A stretch of 32,000 nt of DNA from Bacillus subtilis subsp. subtilis str. 168 (GTDB lineage: Bacteria > Bacillota > Bacilli > Bacillales > Bacillaceae), in NCBI RefSeq assembly GCF_000009045.1, contig NC_000964.3, forward strand, positions 180,001-212,000. Reading direction: 5' to 3'. Below, piece after piece: positions 23,729 to 32,000 of the stretch (the stretch's first letter is position 1; each line of letters starts with the position of its first letter). A model generated the notes under the pieces. That model was not told the DNA's origin. It made no database searches and worked only from the letters and a program-made list of their open reading frames with translations. Made by a program: the position numbers and the translations under genes.

Positions 23729-24364
23729 ATGCCGGATAGTATCAATAACGGACATAAAGAGAGCCATGATCATAGAATTTCGAATGATGCAGAAATGATA
23801 ACAGATGAAAAGTGGCAAGCAATTATAAATAATGATGCAGCGTACAATAATCAATTTTTCTACGCTGTTAAATCGACAGGGATATTCTGTAAACCATCCT
23901 GTAAATCTCGCGTTCCGAAAAAAGAAAATGTATGTATCTTTCCAAACACAGAACAAGCTCTCCGCGCAAATTTTCGCCCTTGTAAACGTTGCAAGCCCAC
24001 TAATGAAAAAATGCCTGATAGCGAGTGGGTTGATTTAATTACTGAATACATTGATAAAAATTTCACAGAAAAATTAACGCTAGAATCGTTAGCAGATATT
24101 TGTCATGGGAGTCCGTATCATATGCATCGAACATTTAAAAAAATTAAAGGCATTACGCTGGTTGAGTATATACAACAAGTTAGAGTACACGCGGCTAAAA
24201 AGTATTTGATTCAGACAAATAAAGCGATTGGAGATATCGCTATATGTGTGGGTATAGCTAACGCGCCTTATTTTATTACTTTATTTAAAAAGAAAACTGG
24301 ACAGACACCAGCACGATTTCGTCAAATGAGTAAAATGGAGGAAACGTACAATGGAAACAAATAA
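23729..24364 (+). CDS. adaA: Methylphosphotriester-DNA alkyltransferase / AraC-type transcriptional activator AdaA
   Basis: 211-aa ORF with an AAGGAGAGGTG SD. It has an Ada Zn-binding Cys4 region (FCKPSCKS...PCKRCKP) and a C-terminal AraC HTH (LADICHGSPYHMHRTFKKIKG...IAICVGIANAPYFITLFKKKTG). Confidence 0.93.
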   Translation: MPDSINNGHKESHDHRISNDAEMITDEKWQAIINNDAAYNNQFFYAVKSTGIFCKPSCKSRVPKKENVCIFPNTEQALRANFRPCKRCKPTNEKMPDSEWVDLITEYIDKNFTEKLTLESLADICHGSPYHMHRTFKKIKGITLVEYIQQVRVHAAKKYLIQTNKAIGDIAICVGIANAPYFITLFKKKTGQTPARFRQMSKMEETYNGNK

Positions 24365-24890
24365 ACCAACCCTTTATTGGTCTTTACTAATGTTCAAGGA
24401 TTGGAATTTTTATATTGCTTCAACTTTAAAGGGGCTTGTGTTTGTAGGTTCACAGAACAAACCAATCGAGGAATTGTTCGAATGGGCTAGGAAACGCTTT
24501 CCGGGAAGTCTTCTTGTTGAAGATGATGATAAGCTTGAACCCTATGCCGTTGAAATCACTCAATATCTAGAAGGAAAGCGGAAAAACTTTACTGTTCCAG
24601 TTGAGTACGCCGGTACGCAATTTCAGCTAGCCGTCTGGAATGCACTTTGTGAAATTCCTTATGGACAGACGAAATCCTATTCCGACATTGCAAATGATAT
24701 AAATAAACCAGCAGCTGTTCGTGCTGTAGGTGCGGCTATTGGGGCTAATCCGGTATTAATTACTGTACCGTGCCATCGTGTAATAGGAAAGAATGGCTCA
24801 TTAACTGGCTATCGGGGCGGATTTGAAATGAAGACACTGCTCCTCGATCTGGAAAAGCGAGCTTCATCTGAAATGGATGTTCCTCATTGA
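24351..24890 (+). CDS. adaB: O6-methylguanine-DNA methyltransferase AdaB
   Basis: 179-aa ORF with the active-site motif VPCHRVIG. Its start overlaps the 3' end of adaA by 14 nt, suggesting translational coupling. Confidence 0.93.
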   Translation: METNKPTLYWSLLMFKDWNFYIASTLKGLVFVGSQNKPIEELFEWARKRFPGSLLVEDDDKLEPYAVEITQYLEGKRKNFTVPVEYAGTQFQLAVWNALCEIPYGQTKSYSDIANDINKPAAVRAVGAAIGANPVLITVPCHRVIGKNGSLTGYRGGFEMKTLLLDLEKRASSEMDVPH

Positions 24891-25231
24891 AAGTGAATCA
24901 TCTATAATGGGTTGGATTCTTTTAGAGGAAAGTAAAGACCAGTTTACTGATAAACTTGACAACTTTTAAAATTTAGCATATCTTATACGTAACTTAATAA
25001 TCGATGCAGATGTTTATTTTTCCTTTTAAAATATGTAGGCCTTTAGCATTCTTTTCATATTTCATTTTAAATATTGATAGGATGAAAAAGTATCCTAATA
25101 AAAAAGGAAGAGAACATGAGTCGATTTATTTGATAATCAGGACTATATTAAAGGAAATGAAAACATAGCATAAAGTAAAGACCAATAATAAGGTAGCTCT
25201 TCAAAAAACTTCGCTGAAGTTAGTTGAAGTG

Positions 25232-25299
25232 AAGCCGACAATTTTCAGGATTCAATGATCTAACATAATCATTGAAATTTTGAAGTTGTCGGCTTTTTT
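25232..25299 (+). terminator. Long interrupted hairpin followed by a T-run in the adaB-ndhF spacer; either a terminator or an attenuator
   Basis: The outer stem AAGCCGACAA / TTGTCGGCTT is a perfect 10 bp. The inner stem TTCAATGAT / ATCATTGAA is a perfect 9 bp with the 8-nt loop CTAACATA. The middle segment pairs only partly. It is followed by TTTTTT. The reverse strand has no U-run, so it acts on the + strand only. Confidence 0.65.
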
Positions 25300-25408
25300 G
25301 TTGGAAAAAAATAGAGATAAATAAAAATTGAAATAAATAATAGACAAATATGATCTGATTGAAAGGTCTTTTGACCAATAATGAGTTTTAAAAAAGGGAG
25401 AATTTAGA

Positions 25409-26926
25409 ATGTTAGTTTCGCTGAGTTTGTCATCATTATTAACATTATTTTTTATTATGCTTATGGCTTCTGGGATTAGTGGACTATTGTTTTTACATCC
25501 GCGTGTACCCTTGAGTTTTGTTCGCATTCATATTGGGATCTTGGCTTTACCACTTTTGGTTTCCTTACTGATTCTTGCCAATAGTGGTGTGAGTGGAAAT
25601 GTTGGCCCTTGGCACTTAGATTCCTTAGCTTGTTTAATGACTTTCTTTGTTCTTGCAATTGGATTCATCATTCAGCGTTTTTCTGTACGTTACTTAATGG
25701 GGGATCGATCTTATCGAAAATATTTTACGCTTTTTACTTTCACAACAGGAGCTGCTTCAATGACATGGTTAAGTGGTGATCTCCGCTTGATGGTTCTATT
25801 TTGGGGAGCAACTCTTGTTGGTTTAACCTTACTTATAAGGTTAAACAGTGCTTGGCAAGTGGCTAGTGAAGCAGCCAAAATTTCTGGACGGTTATTTTTG
25901 TTAAGTTGGTTTTCTTTGTTTTTTGCGATGATGTGGCTTTTTCATGCCACAGGTCAATGGCAGCTATCATTGGTTGTAACAAATGAAAGTTTAGCTGGGC
26001 TGGGAGAATGGGAGAGAACAGGGATTCAGCTATTGATTGTACTGGCGGTGATCATTCCTGCAGCTCAATGGCCGTTCCAAAGATGGTTGGTTGAGTCTAT
26101 TGTTGCTCCCACCCCAGTTTCTGCAATTATGCATGCAGGTTTAGTAAATGCTGGAGGAATAATACTAACTCGATTTTCACCTCTATTTCATGGTGGTATC
26201 GCTTCGATTATCTTACTTCTGCTTGCTAGCATTTCTGTATTGATTGGAACTGGAATTAGTTTAGTTCAGGTTGATTATAAACGCCAGTTAGTAGGCTCCA
26301 CGATTGGACAAATGGGGTTTATGCTCATTCAGTGTGCATTAGGCGCCTATATAGCAGCCATTATTCACCTTATTTTACATGGTTTATTCAAGGCTACGTT
26401 GTTTCTACAGGCTGGTTCAGCAGTAGGGCGTCATGAAGTATCGACTCGCACTAATGAAAGAACATCCTATTTATGGGTCATGGCTGGTCGGATTTTATCC
26501 TTAGTTATAGGTGTTGCTTTTTGGCTCACTGCTCCTGGAGACGGGTATCACTTAATCAGTGCGCTGATCTTAGGGTGGTCATTGTCCGTTTCTTGGGATC
26601 AGCTTGTCGCTTTTGGAGAGGGCCGAATTGGCCGGATTGCCGGTTTAACTGTTTTAGGAGGAGCAGCCCTCGTATATTTTATCATTCATCACCTTTTCTA
26701 TAAGTGGCTGCATACAACCATTTTTCAAAGTGTTCAACCTCCAATGTCAGCTGTCATGATTGTCGTATGTCTCTTACTCTTTGGCAGTGCTTTAGGTACG
26801 TGGGTTGCTCGTCATCGTTCTTCCGTTTTTTTCGCGGTACTCTATCTTTGGTTAGTCCGATTAGGTGAAGCAAAACCAAAGTCAGTAGAGAGTCACCCAG
26901 ACTACCTTAAACAATATATTTCATAA
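25409..26926 (+). CDS. ndhF: Orphan NuoL/NdhF-like proton-conducting membrane subunit (Mrp-antiporter fold); DabB/MpsA-type component
   Basis: 505-aa polytopic ORF with an AAGGGAG SD. The conserved NuoL/ND5-type core reads PTPVSAIMHAGLVNAGGIIL ... GSTIGQMGFMLIQCALG ... HLILHGLFKATLFL. No other complex I genes are nearby. Confidence 0.9.
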   Translation: MLVSLSLSSLLTLFFIMLMASGISGLLFLHPRVPLSFVRIHIGILALPLLVSLLILANSGVSGNVGPWHLDSLACLMTFFVLAIGFIIQRFSVRYLMGDRSYRKYFTLFTFTTGAASMTWLSGDLRLMVLFWGATLVGLTLLIRLNSAWQVASEAAKISGRLFLLSWFSLFFAMMWLFHATGQWQLSLVVTNESLAGLGEWERTGIQLLIVLAVIIPAAQWPFQRWLVESIVAPTPVSAIMHAGLVNAGGIILTRFSPLFHGGIASIILLLLASISVLIGTGISLVQVDYKRQLVGSTIGQMGFMLIQCALGAYIAAIIHLILHGLFKATLFLQAGSAVGRHEVSTRTNERTSYLWVMAGRILSLVIGVAFWLTAPGDGYHLISALILGWSLSVSWDQLVAFGEGRIGRIAGLTVLGGAALVYFIIHHLFYKWLHTTIFQSVQPPMSAVMIVVCLLLFGSALGTWVARHRSSVFFAVLYLWLVRLGEAKPKSVESHPDYLKQYIS

Positions 26927-26940
26927 GGAGCTAATCTGAG

Positions 26941-29556
26941 ATGGGCATTACATCCGTATTAACGAAAGATAATGTAAAAAAGATAGATACAGATATTGAT
27001 GTTCAAGAAAGGGATCTTAACGTTTTCATTACATCTGCCAGCCGAGTGATTGCGCCACTTTGGCCTATTTCTACATTTGCTGCACGTAATCCGTGGATGG
27101 GACTTGAAAACCAACCTTTTGATCAGGTTGCAAGTTGGTTGAAAAACACTCGCGATGTTGATATATACCCTAGTGCGTCTATGATCCGTTCAGCAAAGAA
27201 TAAAGGTGAGATTGATGAAGATTTTGTGGAAATGGGGCTGCAGCGTTGGCTTGATTCACATTCCTATCACATCCCACGGGACGTAGCAGAGCGATTTTGT
27301 CATGCTGCATTAAAGTTAGATCCCCTGCCTTCCGACCTTTTATCATCACATGAGCTGGAGAAATTAGTAAGTGAATGTAGTGGATTGGATCATATCGAGA
27401 ATGTGTTTATGCAGCCACTAAGTTCGTATATAGAGAATCAAGATGGTGAAAGGCTAGTCAATATACTAGATCATCATGTCATTAAATGGAGTAAATTATA
27501 TCTTGATGACTCTCAAGCGGGTTGGACAATGCCTAATCGTGAGGAAGGTTTCTATCGTGCTTGGCAGCATCTTATTCAATATGATCCAGCACTTAGCAAA
27601 AAGCAGCGAGAAAGGGTAAAAGGTTGGCCGAAAGAGGCACATTTGGCTTTACAAGAAGCTTTATTCGCACTAGAAATCCCAGAGTCAGAAATCCAGACTT
27701 ATCTTGAAGGTCATTTACTTTCATTACCTGGATGGGCAGGGATGATGCTTTGGCGCTCCCAACAATCGAGCCACGAACATGCACTACTAACAGAATATTT
27801 AGCGGTTCGAATATCCATGGAGTGGGCTCTTATAAAGCCATACTTACCTTTGACTAATGAACGATCTAAGAAAACAATTTCAATTGCTCCCCTTATAGCA
27901 GCTTGGATTCATTGGGGTGGGCTTACATTAGAAGAATGGTCACAGATGACGGCCAGTGAACAAAACGAATATTTATCATTTGCCTACAGCTTTGATGAGA
28001 AACTTCGCAAGAAACTTTGGTTAGAAGCTTGGGAACAAACGTACACTGATCGATTAAGCCAGAAGATCATCTCGAAACAACGTGAAACCGGCCGTGAAAA
28101 ATCTGCATTAGCTCAATTAGCATTCTGCATCGATGTACGATCAGAACCTTTTCGTCGTCAACTAGAAAAAGAAGGCCCGTTTGAAACGATTGGTATTGCT
28201 GGTTTCTTCGGGGTGCCGATTGCAACTTGTGAACTTGGCAGTAAACACAGTCATGCTTCCTTGCCGATCATACAAAAACCGCAAAATAAAATAAAAGAGT
28301 TCGCAGATGAGGATGTATTCAAAAAATACAATCAACGGAAGCAAGCAATTCATTCTTTAAGCCATACCTTTAAAACGATGAAGCAGAATGCGCTTTCGAG
28401 CTTACTACTGCCTGAGCTAAGTGGACCTTGGCTTACTCTGCAAATGGCAGCCCGTAGCTTTGTGCCAAGAAAGGCGGGTCGTTTCATTCGTAATCTCCGT
28501 GAGGCTTGGTTACGCAAACCTGATACAAAACTCTCGCTTCATCATGATGCTACAGAGGCAGAAATACCTGTGGGTTTTACTGATGAAGAAAAAGTGAACT
28601 ATGCTCGCCAAGCATTAAAAATGATGGGGTTAACAGAGAACATCGCACCATTGGTCGTGATTTGTGGGCATGGCAGTCAAAGTACTAATAATCCTTATTC
28701 TGCAGCCCTTGATTGTGGTGCCTGTGGTGGAGCGGCCGGTGGATTCAATGCAAGAGTTTTAGCTGCTTTATGTAATCTATCAGAGGTACGAGAAGCTCTT
28801 TTAGCTGAAGGAATTAAAATTCCTGAGGATACAGTTTTTGCAGCAGCTGAACATAATACAACAGTAGATGAATTACATTGGCTTTATGTACCAGAGCTTT
28901 CCGAAGCTGCACAAGAAGCATTTGAACAAATTGAAGCCGTTATGCCGAAAGTGAGACATCATGTAAACGCAGAACGTCTAGCCCAATTACCGAATTTCCA
29001 ATCGAAGCTAAAAAATCCGAAGGCTGAGGCAAACCGATTTGCGGAAGATTGGAGTGAGATACGTCCGGAATGGGGACTGGCTCGTAATGCCGCTTTTATT
29101 ATCGGTAAACGTGAATTAACTCAGGATTGTGATTTGGAAGGCAGAGCCTTTCTCCATAATTATGATTGGAAGCAGGATGAAAGCGGTGAACTCCTAGCAA
29201 ATATTATTGTAGGACCTGGAACTGTAGCCCAATGGATTAATTTACAATATTACGCATCAACGGTAGCACCTCATTATTATGGCAGCGGAAATAAAGCAAC
29301 TCAAACCGTTACTGCAGGTCTCGGCGTTATGCAGGGGAATGCAAGCGATTTGTTAGCCGGACTGCCTTGGCAATCCGTCATGGAATCAGATCACGAGGCC
29401 TATCATTCTCCTCTTCGTTTATTGATACTCATCCAAGCACCTAGAGAATATGTAGAACGGTTATTAAATCATGATTCAGCATTTCTGCAAAAAGTTCAAA
29501 ATGGATGGGTCCGACTGGCTAGTCTTGATCCAGAAGGATGTTGGGAAAGCTGGTAA
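26941..29556 (+). CDS. ybcC: DUF2309 protein YbcC; DabA/MpsB-type, beta-carbonic-anhydrase-like component of an inorganic-carbon pump
   Basis: 871-aa soluble ORF with a TAAGGAG SD, 14 nt after the ndhF stop. It has a CxDxR motif (C396-I-D398-V-R400, nt 28126-28140) and ICGH577GS...LDC592GAC595GG (nt 28669-28725), with H-to-C spacing of 15 residues. Confidence 0.9.
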   Translation: MGITSVLTKDNVKKIDTDIDVQERDLNVFITSASRVIAPLWPISTFAARNPWMGLENQPFDQVASWLKNTRDVDIYPSASMIRSAKNKGEIDEDFVEMGLQRWLDSHSYHIPRDVAERFCHAALKLDPLPSDLLSSHELEKLVSECSGLDHIENVFMQPLSSYIENQDGERLVNILDHHVIKWSKLYLDDSQAGWTMPNREEGFYRAWQHLIQYDPALSKKQRERVKGWPKEAHLALQEALFALEIPESEIQTYLEGHLLSLPGWAGMMLWRSQQSSHEHALLTEYLAVRISMEWALIKPYLPLTNERSKKTISIAPLIAAWIHWGGLTLEEWSQMTASEQNEYLSFAYSFDEKLRKKLWLEAWEQTYTDRLSQKIISKQRETGREKSALAQLAFCIDVRSEPFRRQLEKEGPFETIGIAGFFGVPIATCELGSKHSHASLPIIQKPQNKIKEFADEDVFKKYNQRKQAIHSLSHTFKTMKQNALSSLLLPELSGPWLTLQMAARSFVPRKAGRFIRNLREAWLRKPDTKLSLHHDATEAEIPVGFTDEEKVNYARQALKMMGLTENIAPLVVICGHGSQSTNNPYSAALDCGACGGAAGGFNARVLAALCNLSEVREALLAEGIKIPEDTVFAAAEHNTTVDELHWLYVPELSEAAQEAFEQIEAVMPKVRHHVNAERLAQLPNFQSKLKNPKAEANRFAEDWSEIRPEWGLARNAAFIIGKRELTQDCDLEGRAFLHNYDWKQDESGELLANIIVGPGTVAQWINLQYYASTVAPHYYGSGNKATQTVTAGLGVMQGNASDLLAGLPWQSVMESDHEAYHSPLRLLILIQAPREYVERLLNHDSAFLQKVQNGWVRLASLDPEGCWESW

Positions 29557-29632
29557 TGATGAATCTAAGCATTTATCAAATGGATTTGTTACTCAATACA
29601 AAAATGATAAACATAAGGAAGAGGTGTGCTGT

Positions 29633-30160
29633 ATGAATGTAAACCAAAATAAAAAAGTATTATTTTTGACGGATATTGAAAACGGTTTGGAGCCTATTTT
29701 ACAAGAAGCGACTAACACTTCTGCAGAGAATATGTTGACTATACAAAGCTATGGTGCCAGTATTTCACATCCTTATGGAGAAATCATGAGGTCTGTTATT
29801 TTTGCGATTTACCAGGAAGATGTTGAGGAGATTTTTGTAGTAGGAACAAAAGATAAGAAGACTTCTGCAGGTAATGGACTAACTCAACTTGAAACAATGA
29901 AAGATAAAATACAAACATTGGATTATCTGTTTCAAAATTGCAAGCCTGAATTTTTAGGTGGTACGGTCGATGAATGGCTAAATGAAAATAGCAGTGACAC
30001 CATTGAAAAAAGTGTTGATATGATTCGACATCATCCCCTAGTGCCGTCATATGTTAAAGTTAGAGGTTTATTCGTTAATCATAAGGGTGGAAAACCCTCA
30101 ATCGCGGAGGTTCCTGATGTTAAAACAGGTCAAGCCATGCCTGATCATTGCTTGTCATGA
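29633..30160 (+). CDS. ybcF: YbcF, beta-carbonic-anhydrase-like protein apparently lacking the zinc ligands
   Basis: I chose the start at the ATG at 29633 (MNVNQNKKVLFLTDIENG...), after an AAGGAAGAGGTG SD, giving 175 aa. The 54-codon upstream extension in the ORF track overlaps ybcC and has no SD. By-eye alignment to beta-CAs puts LFLTDIEN against GCSDSR, TIQSYGAS against VHRNVAN, and VEEIFVVGTKDKK against VEHIIICGHYGCG. Confidence 0.8.
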   Translation: MNVNQNKKVLFLTDIENGLEPILQEATNTSAENMLTIQSYGASISHPYGEIMRSVIFAIYQEDVEEIFVVGTKDKKTSAGNGLTQLETMKDKIQTLDYLFQNCKPEFLGGTVDEWLNENSSDTIEKSVDMIRHHPLVPSYVKVRGLFVNHKGGKPSIAEVPDVKTGQAMPDHCLS

Positions 30161-30223
30161 TGAAATGCAGGTTTAACTTCTAAACGCACCCATATATGGA
30201 GAAAGCAGTTCTAAGGAGATTGT

Positions 30224-30514
30224 ATGAGCGCTAATTTAACTGATTTTGTCACGAAAACAATAGAGGAAATGAACTCGTTTGATCGTGAAAATATGGAATG
30301 TATAAAAAAACTAATTAGAAAAGCAATTGATTTTTATCATCTAAAGTCTTATGAAGAAGTTGAGGAAACCCATTCAGGAAATGTTCGATTTTTGCATGTC
30401 CACTCTATGATGGAAGAAAATATGTTATCCAAAATGATAGTGGTCACAAGAAACGGTAAAACTGATTTGGATATTGAAGGTGTATATGAAGGATATGTTG
30501 TAAGAGAATATTAA
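30224..30514 (+). CDS. ybcH: Hypothetical 96-aa cytosolic protein YbcH
   Basis: ORF with a strong SD (TAAGGAGA, 5-nt spacer). It is acidic and has no TM segment or motif I recognise. It is co-directional with its neighbours and no terminator separates them. Confidence 0.7.
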   Translation: MSANLTDFVTKTIEEMNSFDRENMECIKKLIRKAIDFYHLKSYEEVEETHSGNVRFLHVHSMMEENMLSKMIVVTRNGKTDLDIEGVYEGYVVREY

Positions 30515-30571
30515 TGAGACGAAATCACAAATAGAATATGCCAATTTTTTTGCTCAGGAGATGTATTAGAT

Positions 30572-30946
30572 ATGAAAAAGTCTAAGGGTTCTATTGAATC
30601 AGAGATCAGTAAGTCCATTACTCAATGGGAGAAGGATTATCTTGGGCGGGGGTCTGTATCTGTTAAGACTGATATACTGCGGGACATGATCATCGTCAAT
30701 TTAAAAGGGATTTTAACACCAGCCGAATATGTAGTTTGTGGATCAAAAGAGGGTATGTTATCTATCAAACAAACTCGTTCAGAGTTAGTCGAATCAGGTA
30801 TAGAAGGCCTTAAGGATATTATCTTAAAAATAACCGGAGAAAAAGTGAAAAGTTTTCATACTGATTTAAGCTCCCGGACAGGTGAACGAGTGATGGTATT
30901 TAAATTATGTAATGATCTAGAGAAAAATTTGGAAAAGATCTTATAA
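30572..30946 (+). CDS. ybcI: DUF2294 protein YbcI (MpsC-like)
   Basis: 124-aa ORF with an AGGAG SD about 11 nt upstream. The N-terminus ...ISKSITQWEKDYLGRGSVSVKTDILRDMIIVNLKGILTPAE is typical of the DUF2294 family, members of which are annotated as MpsC (from memory). Confidence 0.78.
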   Translation: MKKSKGSIESEISKSITQWEKDYLGRGSVSVKTDILRDMIIVNLKGILTPAEYVVCGSKEGMLSIKQTRSELVESGIEGLKDIILKITGEKVKSFHTDLSSRTGERVMVFKLCNDLEKNLEKIL

Positions 30947-31123
30947 TCTAAAGAAAATAAATGTTTTGACGGTGTGGAATTTGTTGTGAATTGAACATAA
31001 AGAACTGCCGATTCTTTTGTTTTACAATTATGGTATCATTGATAACTTTTATTCATATCCTAAGCGGACATAAAGAGATGTCAATTCATAGTACACTGTC
31101 ATGTTATTCCTGTCGAAAGATCT

Positions 31124-31157
31124 AACATCCGCTGTTGTTATGAGCGGATGTTTTTTT
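31124..31157 (+). terminator. Rho-independent terminator; the first one downstream of ndhF...ybcI
   Basis: AACATCCGCT (loop 9 nt) AGCGGATGTT forms a 10-bp stem with a T-run (TTTTTTT from 31151). It lies 178 nt after the ybcI stop. Confidence 0.85.
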
Positions 31158-31393
31158 ACATCTATTTTAAATACATGAATTTGATGCTGGTGATTAGTCA
31201 CTTGAACAATATTTGAAAACATCCTTGTCACCTGCCGGGTTTCCCCAAGTGTTTAGTGACATGATTATGAGACCAACTTCGTAAAGCTTGCTGATAAATT
31301 TAAGCGGTGAACAAAATTGATATGCTGTCTTCAGTTTCATTTCACGGAATTAGTCAGAGATAAACCTTTAATTAAATATATCCAAAAAACGGA

Positions 31394-31421
31394 TTGACAT
31401 ATCGAAATATAACGATATAAT
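31394..31421 (+). promoter_or_regulatory. ybzH promoter (TTGACA-16 nt-TATAAT) overlapped by the operator-like inverted repeat ACATATC-N10-GATATAA
   Basis: TTGACA is at 31394-31399 and TATAAT at 31416-31421. The ATG at 31429 is only 7 nt past the -10 and there is no SD. The inverted repeat is at 31397-31420. Confidence 0.7.
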
Positions 31422-31428
31422 AATCGAT

Positions 31429-31731
31429 ATGGAACCAATTGAAGTATTCAAAGCCTTATCAAATGAATCAAGGCTGCAAATTTTACAATGGCTGAAGGAG
31501 CCCGATCGTCATTTTGCACCCCATGAAGGGATTGATATGAACACAATCGGGGTATGTGTCAGTCAAATAACAGACAAATTGAAAATGACGCAATCGACAG
31601 CTTCTCAATATCTTACCATCCTTTTAAGAGCCGGCCTAATTAAGGCGGAGCGAATCGGAAAGTACACGTATTATAAAAGAGATGAAGAAGCCATTGGGAA
31701 ACTTGCTGACTTTCTTAAAACAGAGATATAA
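31429..31731 (+). CDS. ybzH: ArsR/SmtB-family winged-helix transcriptional regulator
   Basis: 100-aa ORF. It begins IEVFKALSNESRLQILQWL (ArsR N-terminal helix signature), and the HTH region reads ITDKLKMTQSTASQYLTILLRAGLIKAERIGKYTYY. Confidence 0.82.
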   Translation: MEPIEVFKALSNESRLQILQWLKEPDRHFAPHEGIDMNTIGVCVSQITDKLKMTQSTASQYLTILLRAGLIKAERIGKYTYYKRDEEAIGKLADFLKTEI

Positions 31732-31732
31732 A

Positions 31733-31760
31733 AATAAACATCAAAAGATGTTTATTTTTA
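31733..31760 (+). terminator. Terminator hairpin after ybzH
   Basis: ATAAACATC (loop AAAA) GATGTTTAT forms a 9-bp A/T-rich stem followed by TTTT. Confidence 0.65.
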
Positions 31761-31766
31761 CACCAT

Positions 31767-31830
31767 ACATATCGACATATTACGATGTGTTTATTTTTTT
31801 ATAATAACATATCGATAATTCGTGATATGT
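31767..31830 (+). promoter_or_regulatory. Two further copies of the ACATATC-N10-GATATGT operator motif in the ybcL upstream region
   Basis: ACATATCGACATATTACGATGTGT is at 31767-31790 and ACATATCGATAATTCGTGATATGT at 31807-31830. A TATAAT at 31800-31805 lies between them. Confidence 0.65.
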
Positions 31831-31858
31831 TTATTAATAATTAAGGAGTGAATGTTTT

Positions 31859-32000
31859 ATGTCTAACACTTGGAAAATTTATATTTTAGCCATTGTCAGC
31901 TTTTTAGTTGGAACCTCAGAGTACATCATTTCCGGAATTTTGGATCAAATTGCTCATACTCTCGGGATCACTTTAGCTGCCGCGGGCCAGCTTATTACCA
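31859..32000 (+). CDS. ybcL: MFS transporter YbcL, N-terminal 47 codons; continues off the right edge
   Basis: The ATG at 31859 follows an AAGGAG SD (31843-31848). The translation MSNTWKIYILAIVSFLVGTSEYIISGILDQIAHTLGITLAAAGQLIT is a typical MFS TM1 plus loop. It is open to the window end. Confidence 0.8.
   Translation, partial: MSNTWKIYILAIVSFLVGTSEYIISGILDQIAHTLGITLAAAGQLIT

Follow-up and report, generated by a model that had tools for sequence, protein, structure and literature searches.

The 32,000-nucleotide (nt) window analysed here (Bacillus subtilis subsp. subtilis str. 168, NC_000964.3, positions 180,001 to 212,000) carries the co-directional genes ndhF, ybcC, ybcF, ybcH and ybcI, of which the first two are assigned by sequence to an inorganic-carbon pump of the DabB/DabA (MpsA/MpsB) type and the last encodes MpsC. 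The identity of the pump and of the operon is already known. The new element is a conserved leader RNA upstream of ndhF, which ends in a terminator, travels with MpsC and is probably the unrecognised on/off switch of the pump. A preliminary description of this DNA covered positions 25409-31157 of the window and missed the deeply conserved hairpin-terminator just upstream of them (25199-25299). The features of the leader are listed below in window coordinates.

24956-24984, + strand: sigma-A-type promoter of the leader, TTGACA-17-TATCTT (scan score 10/12)
24991-25299, + strand: conserved leader RNA of ~310 nt, with the start inferred from the promoter and the end placed at the U-tract
25037-25096, + strand: hairpin H1 (RNAalifold prediction), AGGcCUUU-AG-CAUUC ... 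GGAUG-AA-AAAGuaUCCU, with a 2x2 internal loop 5'-AG/3'-AA
25192-25229, + strand: GGNAG box and hairpin H3 (H3 at 25199-25229), CUUCAA-AA-AACUUC gcu GAAGUU-AG-UUGAAG, with a 2x2 internal loop 5'-AA/3'-AG
25231-25299, + strand: long intrinsic terminator adjoining H3, in which GCCGACAA (25234-25241) pairs with UUGUCGGC (25286-25293) as a GC-rich base, followed by U6 (25294-25299)

For comparison, 43 Bacillales loci and 9 loci of Proteobacteria or Bacteroidota (52 genomic loci in all, anchored on YbcC) were fetched, and homologs of all five proteins were located in them. A covariance model of the leader core (R1) gave exactly one + strand match, scoring 74-142 bits, in the window and in each of the 43 Bacillales loci, always upstream of ndhF and on the ndhF strand; the nine non-Firmicute dabBA loci yielded no match. 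At least 15 genera have the RNA, the majority being genera other than Staphylococcus. In 37 of 46 loci, that of Staphylococcus nepalensis included, the core is preceded at a distance of 180-230 nt by a TTGACA-17-TATCTT/TATATT box. Seven further instances, all directly upstream of ndhF, came from metagenomes. The DNA pattern used to screen these was so degenerate that most of what it returned was due to chance, and the covariance model accepted only 7 of the 80 loci. For the 119-nt core, the predicted folding energy is -42 kcal/mol (z = -7.5). When the whole leader was aligned (26 sequences), 97.7% of the cells were paired versus 27-52% with the partners slid, and 13 pairs had changed on both sides versus 3.6 +/- 1.2 in shuffles (0/500). 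All nine pairs of H3 are kept in 25-27 of 27 sequences, divergent systems included, with up to five pair types at one pair, in an alignment that was fitted to the model. H1 folds alike in five systems of differing helix sequence, its outer stem reading CUUU/AAAG, AGCUUU/AGAGCU or GUCU/AGAC and its inner stem CAUUC/GGAUG or CGUUCUUG/CAAGAACG. The internal loops of the two hairpins have the same composition, H3 being the mirror image of H1, while the flanking helices change by compensation. An Rfam 15 scan of window positions 24500-32000 gave no match at E <= 1, and a scan of the S. nepalensis leader gave chance-level matches only. The only earlier mention of the B. subtilis leader that was found is its rank in a computational list of riboswitch-likeness (PMC4448311).

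Between H1 and H3 the leader is variable. Around window positions 25140-25180, ~30-40 nt are missing from the middle of the leader relative to most relatives, other species of the B. subtilis group included; in these relatives the stretch forms a small variable hairpin (e.g. GUUCC-UUUAGAC-GGAAC), which is dispensable, since the leader of strain 168 lacks it. The U-tract ends ~110 nt before the ndhF start, and this intervening stretch contains a semi-conserved AT-rich block. Several further pairings and a recognition mode were considered and rejected. An antiterminator formed by 8-bp pairing of the 5' strand of H3 (CUUCAAAA) with the 3' arm of the terminator (UUUUGAAG) does not hold in the B. 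cereus group, in which changes in the terminator arm are matched by its own partner instead of by H3. Two "AATCGAT"-like blocks proposed to pair over a long range both read AATTGAT in the same orientation in B. cereus and are direct repeats rather than complements. HutP-like recognition, suggested by several UAG triplets, was set aside as MpsC has no HutP fold match and the triplet spacing differs.

Regarding the genes linked to the pump, the preliminary description had proposed their synteny with dabBA as a check, and in Bacillales they are indeed syntenic. A homolog of YbcI/MpsC lies beside dabBA in 41 of the 43 loci, 25 times downstream of ybcC and 16 times upstream of ndhF on the same strand. 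YbcF occurs in 32/43, always directly after ybcC, and YbcH in 13/43, belonging to the B. subtilis group, Halalkalibacter and Metabacillus. None of the three is found in the nine proteobacterial or Bacteroidota dabBA loci. As the linkage of MpsC has been kept while its position switches, MpsC appears to be functionally coupled to the pump, and the 41/43 count contradicts a published claim that this linkage is confined to staphylococci. YbcI shares 71-99% identity with its best 120 hits across many genera of Bacillales and 76% with the protein of Staphylococcus succinus; judged by identity, it is unusually conserved compared with YbcC, whose identity to the S. nepalensis homolog amounts to 55%. 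The AlphaFold model of YbcI (predicted local distance difference test, pLDDT, 93) has no fold neighbour in the Protein Data Bank (PDB) at Foldseek E <= 0.001, and PII proteins are not among its top matches. In S. aureus, deletion of mpsC gave no phenotype (Fan et al., PMC6689103; repeated in PMC8552792), MpsC was dispensable when E. coli was complemented, and expression of mpsA drops in 5% CO2 (both Fan et al., PMC6689103).

The hairpin-terminator and mpsC recur together in other gene orders and beside other transporters, as listed below.

Geobacillus (locus L172, 8490-8690): mpsC, two tandem H3 copies, terminator, dabB-dabA; 44 nt from terminator to start
Scopulibacillus: mpsC, H3-terminator, ndhF; 39 nt
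Anoxybacillus amylolyticus megaplasmid: promoter, H1, MpsC paralog (63% identity), H3-terminator (52.5 bits), SbtA-type permease (PF05982, 376 bits); 33 nt
Acetoanaerobium (Clostridia): distant MpsC (34% identity), core-like hairpin-terminator (34.9 bits), transporter of the major facilitator superfamily (MFS); 28 nt
S. pettenkoferi plasmid NZ_CP066063.1 (locus L176, 1-6078): promoter, H1, terminator, dabB, dabA, YbcF-like gene, mpsC; ~18 nt
Halalkalibacter oceani (locus L007, 16200-16900, minus strand): frameshifted mpsC paralog, similar terminator, 28-codon relic; a decayed copy

The order mpsC, hairpin-terminator, transporter thus recurs with three unrelated transporters, namely DabBA, the SbtA-type permease and the MFS protein. 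The distance from U-tract to start codon is only 18-44 nt in five homologous systems, which is room for a Shine-Dalgarno (SD) sequence alone. H1 and H3 are also separable: in Anoxybacillus the mpsC gene lies between them, in Geobacillus two H3 copies stand in tandem before the terminator, the duplication including the GGGAG box, and no H1 is recognised, and on the plasmid H1 occurs without H3. This suggests that H1 and H3 may be interchangeable copies of one recognition module. The plasmid cassette of S. pettenkoferi is flanked by IS6 elements and lies on a mobilizable plasmid, so the pump and its accessory genes can move as one unit between staphylococci. It holds a YbcF homolog between dabA and mpsC (29% identity, E = 5e-21), truncated and ligand-less like YbcF itself, which implies that YbcF travels with the pump. 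In the decayed Halalkalibacter copy, transposase genes lie nearby. The 28-residue relic, taken to be a remnant of an SbtA-type permease, has no Pfam or NCBIfam match; in a tblastn search against plasmids, all eight matches were N-termini annotated as sodium-dependent bicarbonate transport permeases, each weak alone.

An RNA at the position of the leader has been described in S. aureus, where RsaX05 was annotated as "cis-acting leader of ndhF?" (PMC2790875). The same RNA, also called Teg41, is ~200 nt long, has a promoter and a terminator that are both orphans, and shares the orientation of ndhF, stopping 85 bp short of that gene (PMC6428751). It has been described as a trans-acting activator of the production of alpha-phenol-soluble modulins (alpha-PSM), whose operon is, by published account, confined to S. 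aureus and S. argenteus; other staphylococcal ndhF genes were said not to be preceded by Teg41 (Zapf et al., PMC6428751). An attempt to delete Teg41 failed, for which the authors blamed the loss of ndhF promoter elements (PMC6428751). In S. nepalensis the same succession of promoter, H1 and H3-terminator core (74 bits) ends 85 nt before mpsA, and in S. succinus (57 bits) ~80 nt before it. By position and by comparison with these other staphylococci, the leader probably corresponds to Teg41/RsaX05. Our literature search returned no paper that mentions both Teg41 and mpsA, MpsAB or bicarbonate.

Downstream of the leader, the open reading frames (ORFs) of the operon and its terminator were assigned as follows, CA standing for carbonic anhydrase.

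25409-26926, + strand: ndhF (dabB/mpsA), proton-conducting membrane subunit, 505 amino acids (aa); PF00361 E = 2.5e-73, NCBIfam NF006373 817 bits
26941-29556, + strand: ybcC (dabA/mpsB), cytoplasmic beta-CA-like subunit, 871 aa; PF10070 (DabA) 901 bits (cut-off 25)
29633-30160, + strand: ybcF ("canC"), beta-CA-fold protein without a zinc site, 175 aa; PF00484 17.3 bits
30224-30514, + strand: ybcH, acidic DUF6407 protein, 96 aa; PF19945 137 bits (cut-off 25)
30572-30946, + strand: ybcI (mpsC), DUF2294 protein, 124 aa, isoelectric point 8.9; PF10057 134.5 bits (cut-off 23)
31124-31157, + strand: operon terminator, AACAUCCGCU ... AGCGGAUGUU followed by U7, 10-bp stem, fold z = -3.0, read directly from the sequence

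The five genes are separated by 14, 76, 63 and 57 nt, and each start is preceded by an SD-like sequence (GGGAG, AAGGAG, AAGGAAGAGG, AAGGAG and CAGGAG, from ndhF to ybcI). The module is flanked by adaA-adaB upstream and by an ArsR-like gene downstream. A consensus scan of positions 24000-32000 found 10 terminator-like sites versus 5.8 +/- 2.5 in shuffles, which is about the chance rate; the + strand sites within 25409-31124 (25768, 26625/26630 and 29771) are weak and all lie inside coding sequence. The simple scan did not pick the terminator at 31124-31157, which was found by reading the sequence. No intergenic structure was recognised in the 76-, 63- and 57-nt gaps, which fold no better than shuffles (z -0.5 to +1.3). 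The layout given in the preliminary description, with short gaps, individual SD sequences, no convincing internal terminator hairpin and a strong terminator at 31124-31157, is therefore borne out, and its single transcription unit agrees with an independent result, ndhF-ybcCFHI being an independently modulated iModulon that is active in heat shock and germination (Rychel et al., PMC7732839). Weak promoter activity has been reported in the 76-bp ybcC-ybcF gap (Barnes and Helmann, 10.64898/2026.09.08.750065). The 3' untranslated region between the ybcI stop and the operon terminator is unusually long (~178 nt, 30947-31123), and no ORF or RNA family was recognised there. Beyond the operon, the ArsR-like gene (31429-31731) has a perfect consensus promoter, TTGACA-16-TATAAT (12/12; window 31394-31431). 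As this promoter ends only 7 nt before the ATG, the gene probably yields a leaderless mRNA. A possible operator, a palindrome of the ATCGATAT type, overlaps the promoter.

By their sequences, ndhF and ybcC constitute a DabB/DabA (MpsA/MpsB) pump for energy-coupled CO2 hydration and bicarbonate accumulation. NdhF is a stand-alone PF00361 subunit with no other complex I genes nearby, and YbcC carries the metal-site residues C396-x-D398-x-R400, H577 and C592. Both the lone NuoL/NdhF-type subunit and the DUF2309 protein with a beta-CA-like site were recognised as such in the preliminary description, whose interpretation of the pair as a vectorial carbonic anhydrase fits the sequence and is already in the literature. 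NdhF-YbcC has been listed as a bicarbonate transporter in SubtiWiki since 2021 (PMC8728116), and the structure of DAB2 has meanwhile been solved by cryo-electron microscopy (PMC13144422). Barnes and Helmann (bioRxiv, 8 Sept 2026, 10.64898/2026.09.08.750065) renamed ybcC as mpsB and ybcF as canC and showed that a canA canB canC mpsB quadruple mutant of B. subtilis requires added CO2; ybcH and ybcI go unmentioned there. The role of the pump in B. subtilis is confirmed by these published genetics. In a B. subtilis mutant without cyclic di-AMP (c-di-AMP), expression of ndhF-ybcC was up 7-fold, and loss-of-function mutations in either gene suppressed the glutamate sensitivity of such a mutant, which the authors interpreted in terms of respiration (Krüger et al., PMC7857571). 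Given that ndhF-ybcC is now a bicarbonate system, a connection between c-di-AMP and inorganic carbon is an unexplored lead.

YbcF shares the fold and ancestry of beta-CAs and, as far as its sequence tells, lacks their canonical active site. Its PF00484 score lies below the gathering score of 25.7, and a family profile built from a 20-sequence alignment matches the PDB sequences 6Y04 (E = 2.2e-11) and 1G5C (E = 3.5e-5) over nearly the full length. The three zinc-ligand positions (Cys, His and Cys of Cys...His-x-x-Cys) read T13, T72 and K75, and of the Asp-Arg dyad Asp14 is kept and the Arg position is E16. The T13, T72, K75 and E16 positions vary within the YbcF family, whose invariant residues lie elsewhere (K8, Q24, N33, Y40, S54, D97, W115 and H134). 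The degenerate beta-CA-like protein of the preliminary description is recovered in these results. YbcF is more likely to be a non-catalytic or non-canonical accessory or sensor, and because it lacks the zinc ligands, the naming of YbcF as the carbonic anhydrase "CanC" needs a biochemical check. A "putative CA" directly downstream of MpsAB had been noted in B. subtilis, B. anthracis and S. sciuri (PMC8552792).

YbcH, which had been called an orphan, is not a true one, as it belongs to DUF6407. The family is very small and confined to Bacillaceae. Among 1.84 billion cluster representatives, a profile search returned only 49 matches at E <= 0.001, nearly all of them stand-alone proteins of at most ~100 aa. 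The AlphaFold model of YbcH (pLDDT 90.5) has no significant PDB fold neighbour by Foldseek, a sequence search of the PDB with YbcH and YbcI found nothing, and a profile-profile comparison indicates that the two are unrelated (probability 0.2%). YbcH would be a narrow, lineage-specific add-on of recent date, without which the module can do. In Halalkalibacter oceani (L007, 9894-10745) and Metabacillus herbersteinensis (L011), a gene of ~283 aa lies between ybcF and ybcH; it encodes an uncharacterised DUF6671 protein (PF20376, 210 bits) with a Cys-rich C-terminus. To describe ybcF, ybcH and ybcI as three unexplained accessory genes, as the preliminary description did, is broadly right, with MpsC identified there as a DUF2294 protein. 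The wording is partly outdated in that YbcF, as CanC, has a genetic role and mpsC had already been deleted in S. aureus.

Taken together, the pump in Bacillales is surrounded by an envelope of a sigma-A promoter, a leader of ~300 nt, MpsC, often YbcF and, in few genera, YbcH. In the reading that we favour, with a probability of roughly 0.6, this is a DabBA pump whose leader terminator is an attenuator, with MpsC as the partner that reads the hairpins, YbcF as a non-canonical protein and YbcH as an add-on. The terminator would act as a conditional attenuator that decides the access of RNA polymerase to the pump genes. The 18-44 nt gaps leave no room for a promoter, so that transporter genes in such systems must be transcribed through the terminator, and regulated read-through may accordingly control pump expression, a proposal held with moderate confidence. 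MpsC would be the trans-acting partner that reads H1 and H3 and would probably act as a repressor, favouring termination while inorganic carbon is abundant. Such a repressor would explain why deletion of mpsC has no cost in air and why E. coli does not need it. A repressor, as in the cases of PyrR and TRAP, also fits better than an essential antiterminator, because there is no defect in air and mpsA is down at high CO2. The separable, repeated hairpins fit repeated protein sites better than a single aptamer, and since MpsC accompanies three unrelated transporters, always together with the RNA, a role in expression through the RNA is more economical than an action on each of them. Assembly, gating or leak prevention at the pump, which had been offered as candidate roles, are a poorer match for MpsC than a function in the control of expression. 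Inorganic carbon is a candidate for the signal, and the heat-shock induction and the 7-fold increase seen without c-di-AMP may be clues.

Several observations weigh against this interpretation. That MpsC binds the AG/AA-loop hairpins is put forward with lower confidence, its link to the RNA being one of co-occurrence only; no RNA-binding fold could be recognised in the MpsC model, which also lacks neighbours in the PDB, and two Mesobacillus loci have the leader RNA and no mpsC within 10 kb. No conserved antiterminator pairing was found, the minimum-free-energy folds always consisting of H3 and the terminator. In B. subtilis itself, the ~110 nt between terminator and ndhF may hold a second promoter, and Teg41, at the leader position, has been reported as a stand-alone trans-acting small RNA (sRNA) (PMC6428751). 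Regarding YbcF, canC alone supports growth in air (Barnes and Helmann, 10.64898/2026.09.08.750065), which argues that it supplies bicarbonate in some way.

An alternative is that YbcF, YbcH and YbcI act on the pump itself, as subunits, assembly factors or SbtB-like gates, with the upstream RNA unrelated to them. The co-transcription and co-regulation of the five genes would suit this, as would the fixed place of YbcF directly after ybcC and the beta-CA fold that it shares with DabA, the plasmid cassette that keeps a YbcF-like gene and mpsC with dabBA, and the very strong conservation of MpsC. However, MpsC is dispensable for pump function in both S. aureus and E. coli (PMC6689103) and lacks the PII/SbtB fold, a regulator of this kind would need to recognise three unrelated transporters (DabBA, SbtA-type and MFS), and of the 43 loci 11 have no YbcF and 30 no YbcH, so that this account appears rather improbable. 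Less credence still is given to a constitutive terminator with a separate promoter for ndhF, which we consider distinctly improbable: the RNA is found in at least 15 genera, mostly outside Staphylococcus, whereas the alpha-PSM operon has been reported for S. aureus and S. argenteus alone (PMC6428751), it always lies directly upstream of a transporter gene on the same strand, and five systems have a U-tract-to-start distance of 18-44 nt. The ~200-nt band independent of ndhF in S. aureus, together with the increase of alpha-PSM upon over-expression from a plasmid (PMC6428751), speaks for such a terminator, although terminated riboswitch leaders likewise yield stable short bands on Northern blots. 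The ~110 nt in front of ndhF in B. subtilis, with their semi-conserved AT-rich block, point the same way, whereas the failure to delete Teg41, attributed by its authors to lost ndhF promoter elements (PMC6428751), points the other. A dual cis and trans role of the RNA would make the attenuator and the constitutive terminator both partly true.

The leader could also be a self-sufficient riboswitch for a small ligand (an inorganic-carbon species, Na+ or c-di-AMP), MpsC then having an unrelated job. The separable H1 and H3 of Anoxybacillus, Geobacillus and the plasmid resemble repeated protein sites more than one aptamer, and neither an antiterminator nor an Rfam relative was found, which leaves the riboswitch an unlikely explanation in spite of the highly conserved unpaired nucleotides of the GGNAG box and the AG/AA loops, the persistence of the RNA in Mesobacillus without a neighbouring mpsC, and the 7-fold increase of ndhF-ybcC without c-di-AMP (PMC7857571). 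A comparably doubtful view takes YbcF/CanC for a genuine carbonic anhydrase, whose metal site may be unusual and which would provide the operon with another route to bicarbonate. The preprint genetics (Barnes and Helmann, 10.64898/2026.09.08.750065) argue for it: a canA canB mpsB triple mutant grows in air and a quadruple mutant also lacking canC does not, and the authors propose that the three homologs may use different metals; the fold of YbcF, too, is clearly that of a beta-CA. Against this, the ligand positions read T13, T72 and K75, none of them conserved in the family, the dyad Arg is E16, and the Pfam score is under the gathering threshold. In the same preprint, moreover, the canB mpsB double mutant was sicker than the triple mutant, and the mpsB-canC deletion was marked and lies upstream of ybcH and ybcI. 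The genetic evidence for a contribution of CanC is real but internally inconsistent.

To our knowledge, how heterotrophic Gram-positive bacteria sense and respond to CO2 and bicarbonate is largely unknown. In S. aureus, mpsAB matters for growth in air, virulence, CO2-dependent small-colony variants and bicarbonate-dependent beta-lactam susceptibility. One literature treats the RNA upstream of ndhF as an S. aureus-specific virulence sRNA, and the comparative data suggest that pump and upstream RNA are one conserved control unit for inorganic-carbon transporters. Regarding the accessory genes, the present analysis adds the linkage of MpsC to the pump, the non-canonical nature of YbcF, the narrow distribution of the add-on YbcH and a leader-attenuator that is absent from Rfam. 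The system is best regarded as a DAB pump combined with terminator-based attenuation; that it also involves a new family of RNA-directed regulators is plausible but unproven. More tentatively, MpsC may represent a new family of RNA-binding attenuation proteins and a transporter-agnostic inorganic-carbon switch for DabBA, SbtA-type and MFS transporters in Bacillota, with Teg41 as its terminated leader. If true, no CO2/bicarbonate-responsive attenuation system would have been described before this one in Gram-positive bacteria, and Teg41 would be a terminated leader instead of an S. aureus-specific sRNA. The regulation question is directly testable in B. subtilis.

Among known systems, the closest to the core pair are DabBA (DAB2) of Halothiobacillus neapolitanus and MpsAB of S. 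aureus, in which a lone PF00361 subunit is likewise followed by a PF10070 protein with a Cys-Asp-Arg...His...Cys site; according to the literature, B. subtilis becomes dependent on CO2 for growth in part through the loss of this system. The Bacillales systems differ by the leader RNA, MpsC and, often, the zinc-less beta-CA homolog, all three absent from the nine proteobacterial or Bacteroidota loci, and the pump is redundant in B. subtilis because two canonical beta-CAs are encoded besides. Cab-type beta-CAs (PDB 1G5C and 6Y04) align with YbcF over its full length and have the same fold, and differ from it in all three zinc ligands and the dyad Arg. Teg41 (srn_1080, SAUSA300s087) resembles the leader in its orphan promoter and terminator, its ndhF orientation, its position 85 bp upstream and its first suggested function as a cis leader, whereas ~205 nt was reported for it versus ~310 nt inferred in B. 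subtilis, and it was reported as specific to S. aureus and S. argenteus and as acting in trans on the alpha-PSM transcript. The attenuation systems of Bacillus based on PyrR (pyr), HutP (hut) and TRAP share with the present one a small regulator gene within the target operon, which in several genomes comes first and precedes hairpin, terminator and structural genes, as do hutP and pyrR, and repeated short RNA motifs beside an intrinsic terminator; MpsC has no sequence or fold similarity to these proteins, its RNA binding is putative, and no antiterminator structure was found. SbtB, the PII-like regulator of cyanobacterial SbtA, is likewise a small soluble protein beside a bicarbonate transporter that is not needed for transport itself. 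In contrast to SbtB, MpsC is not PII-like and accompanies three unrelated transporter families together with a conserved RNA, which points to the control of expression rather than the gating of one transporter.

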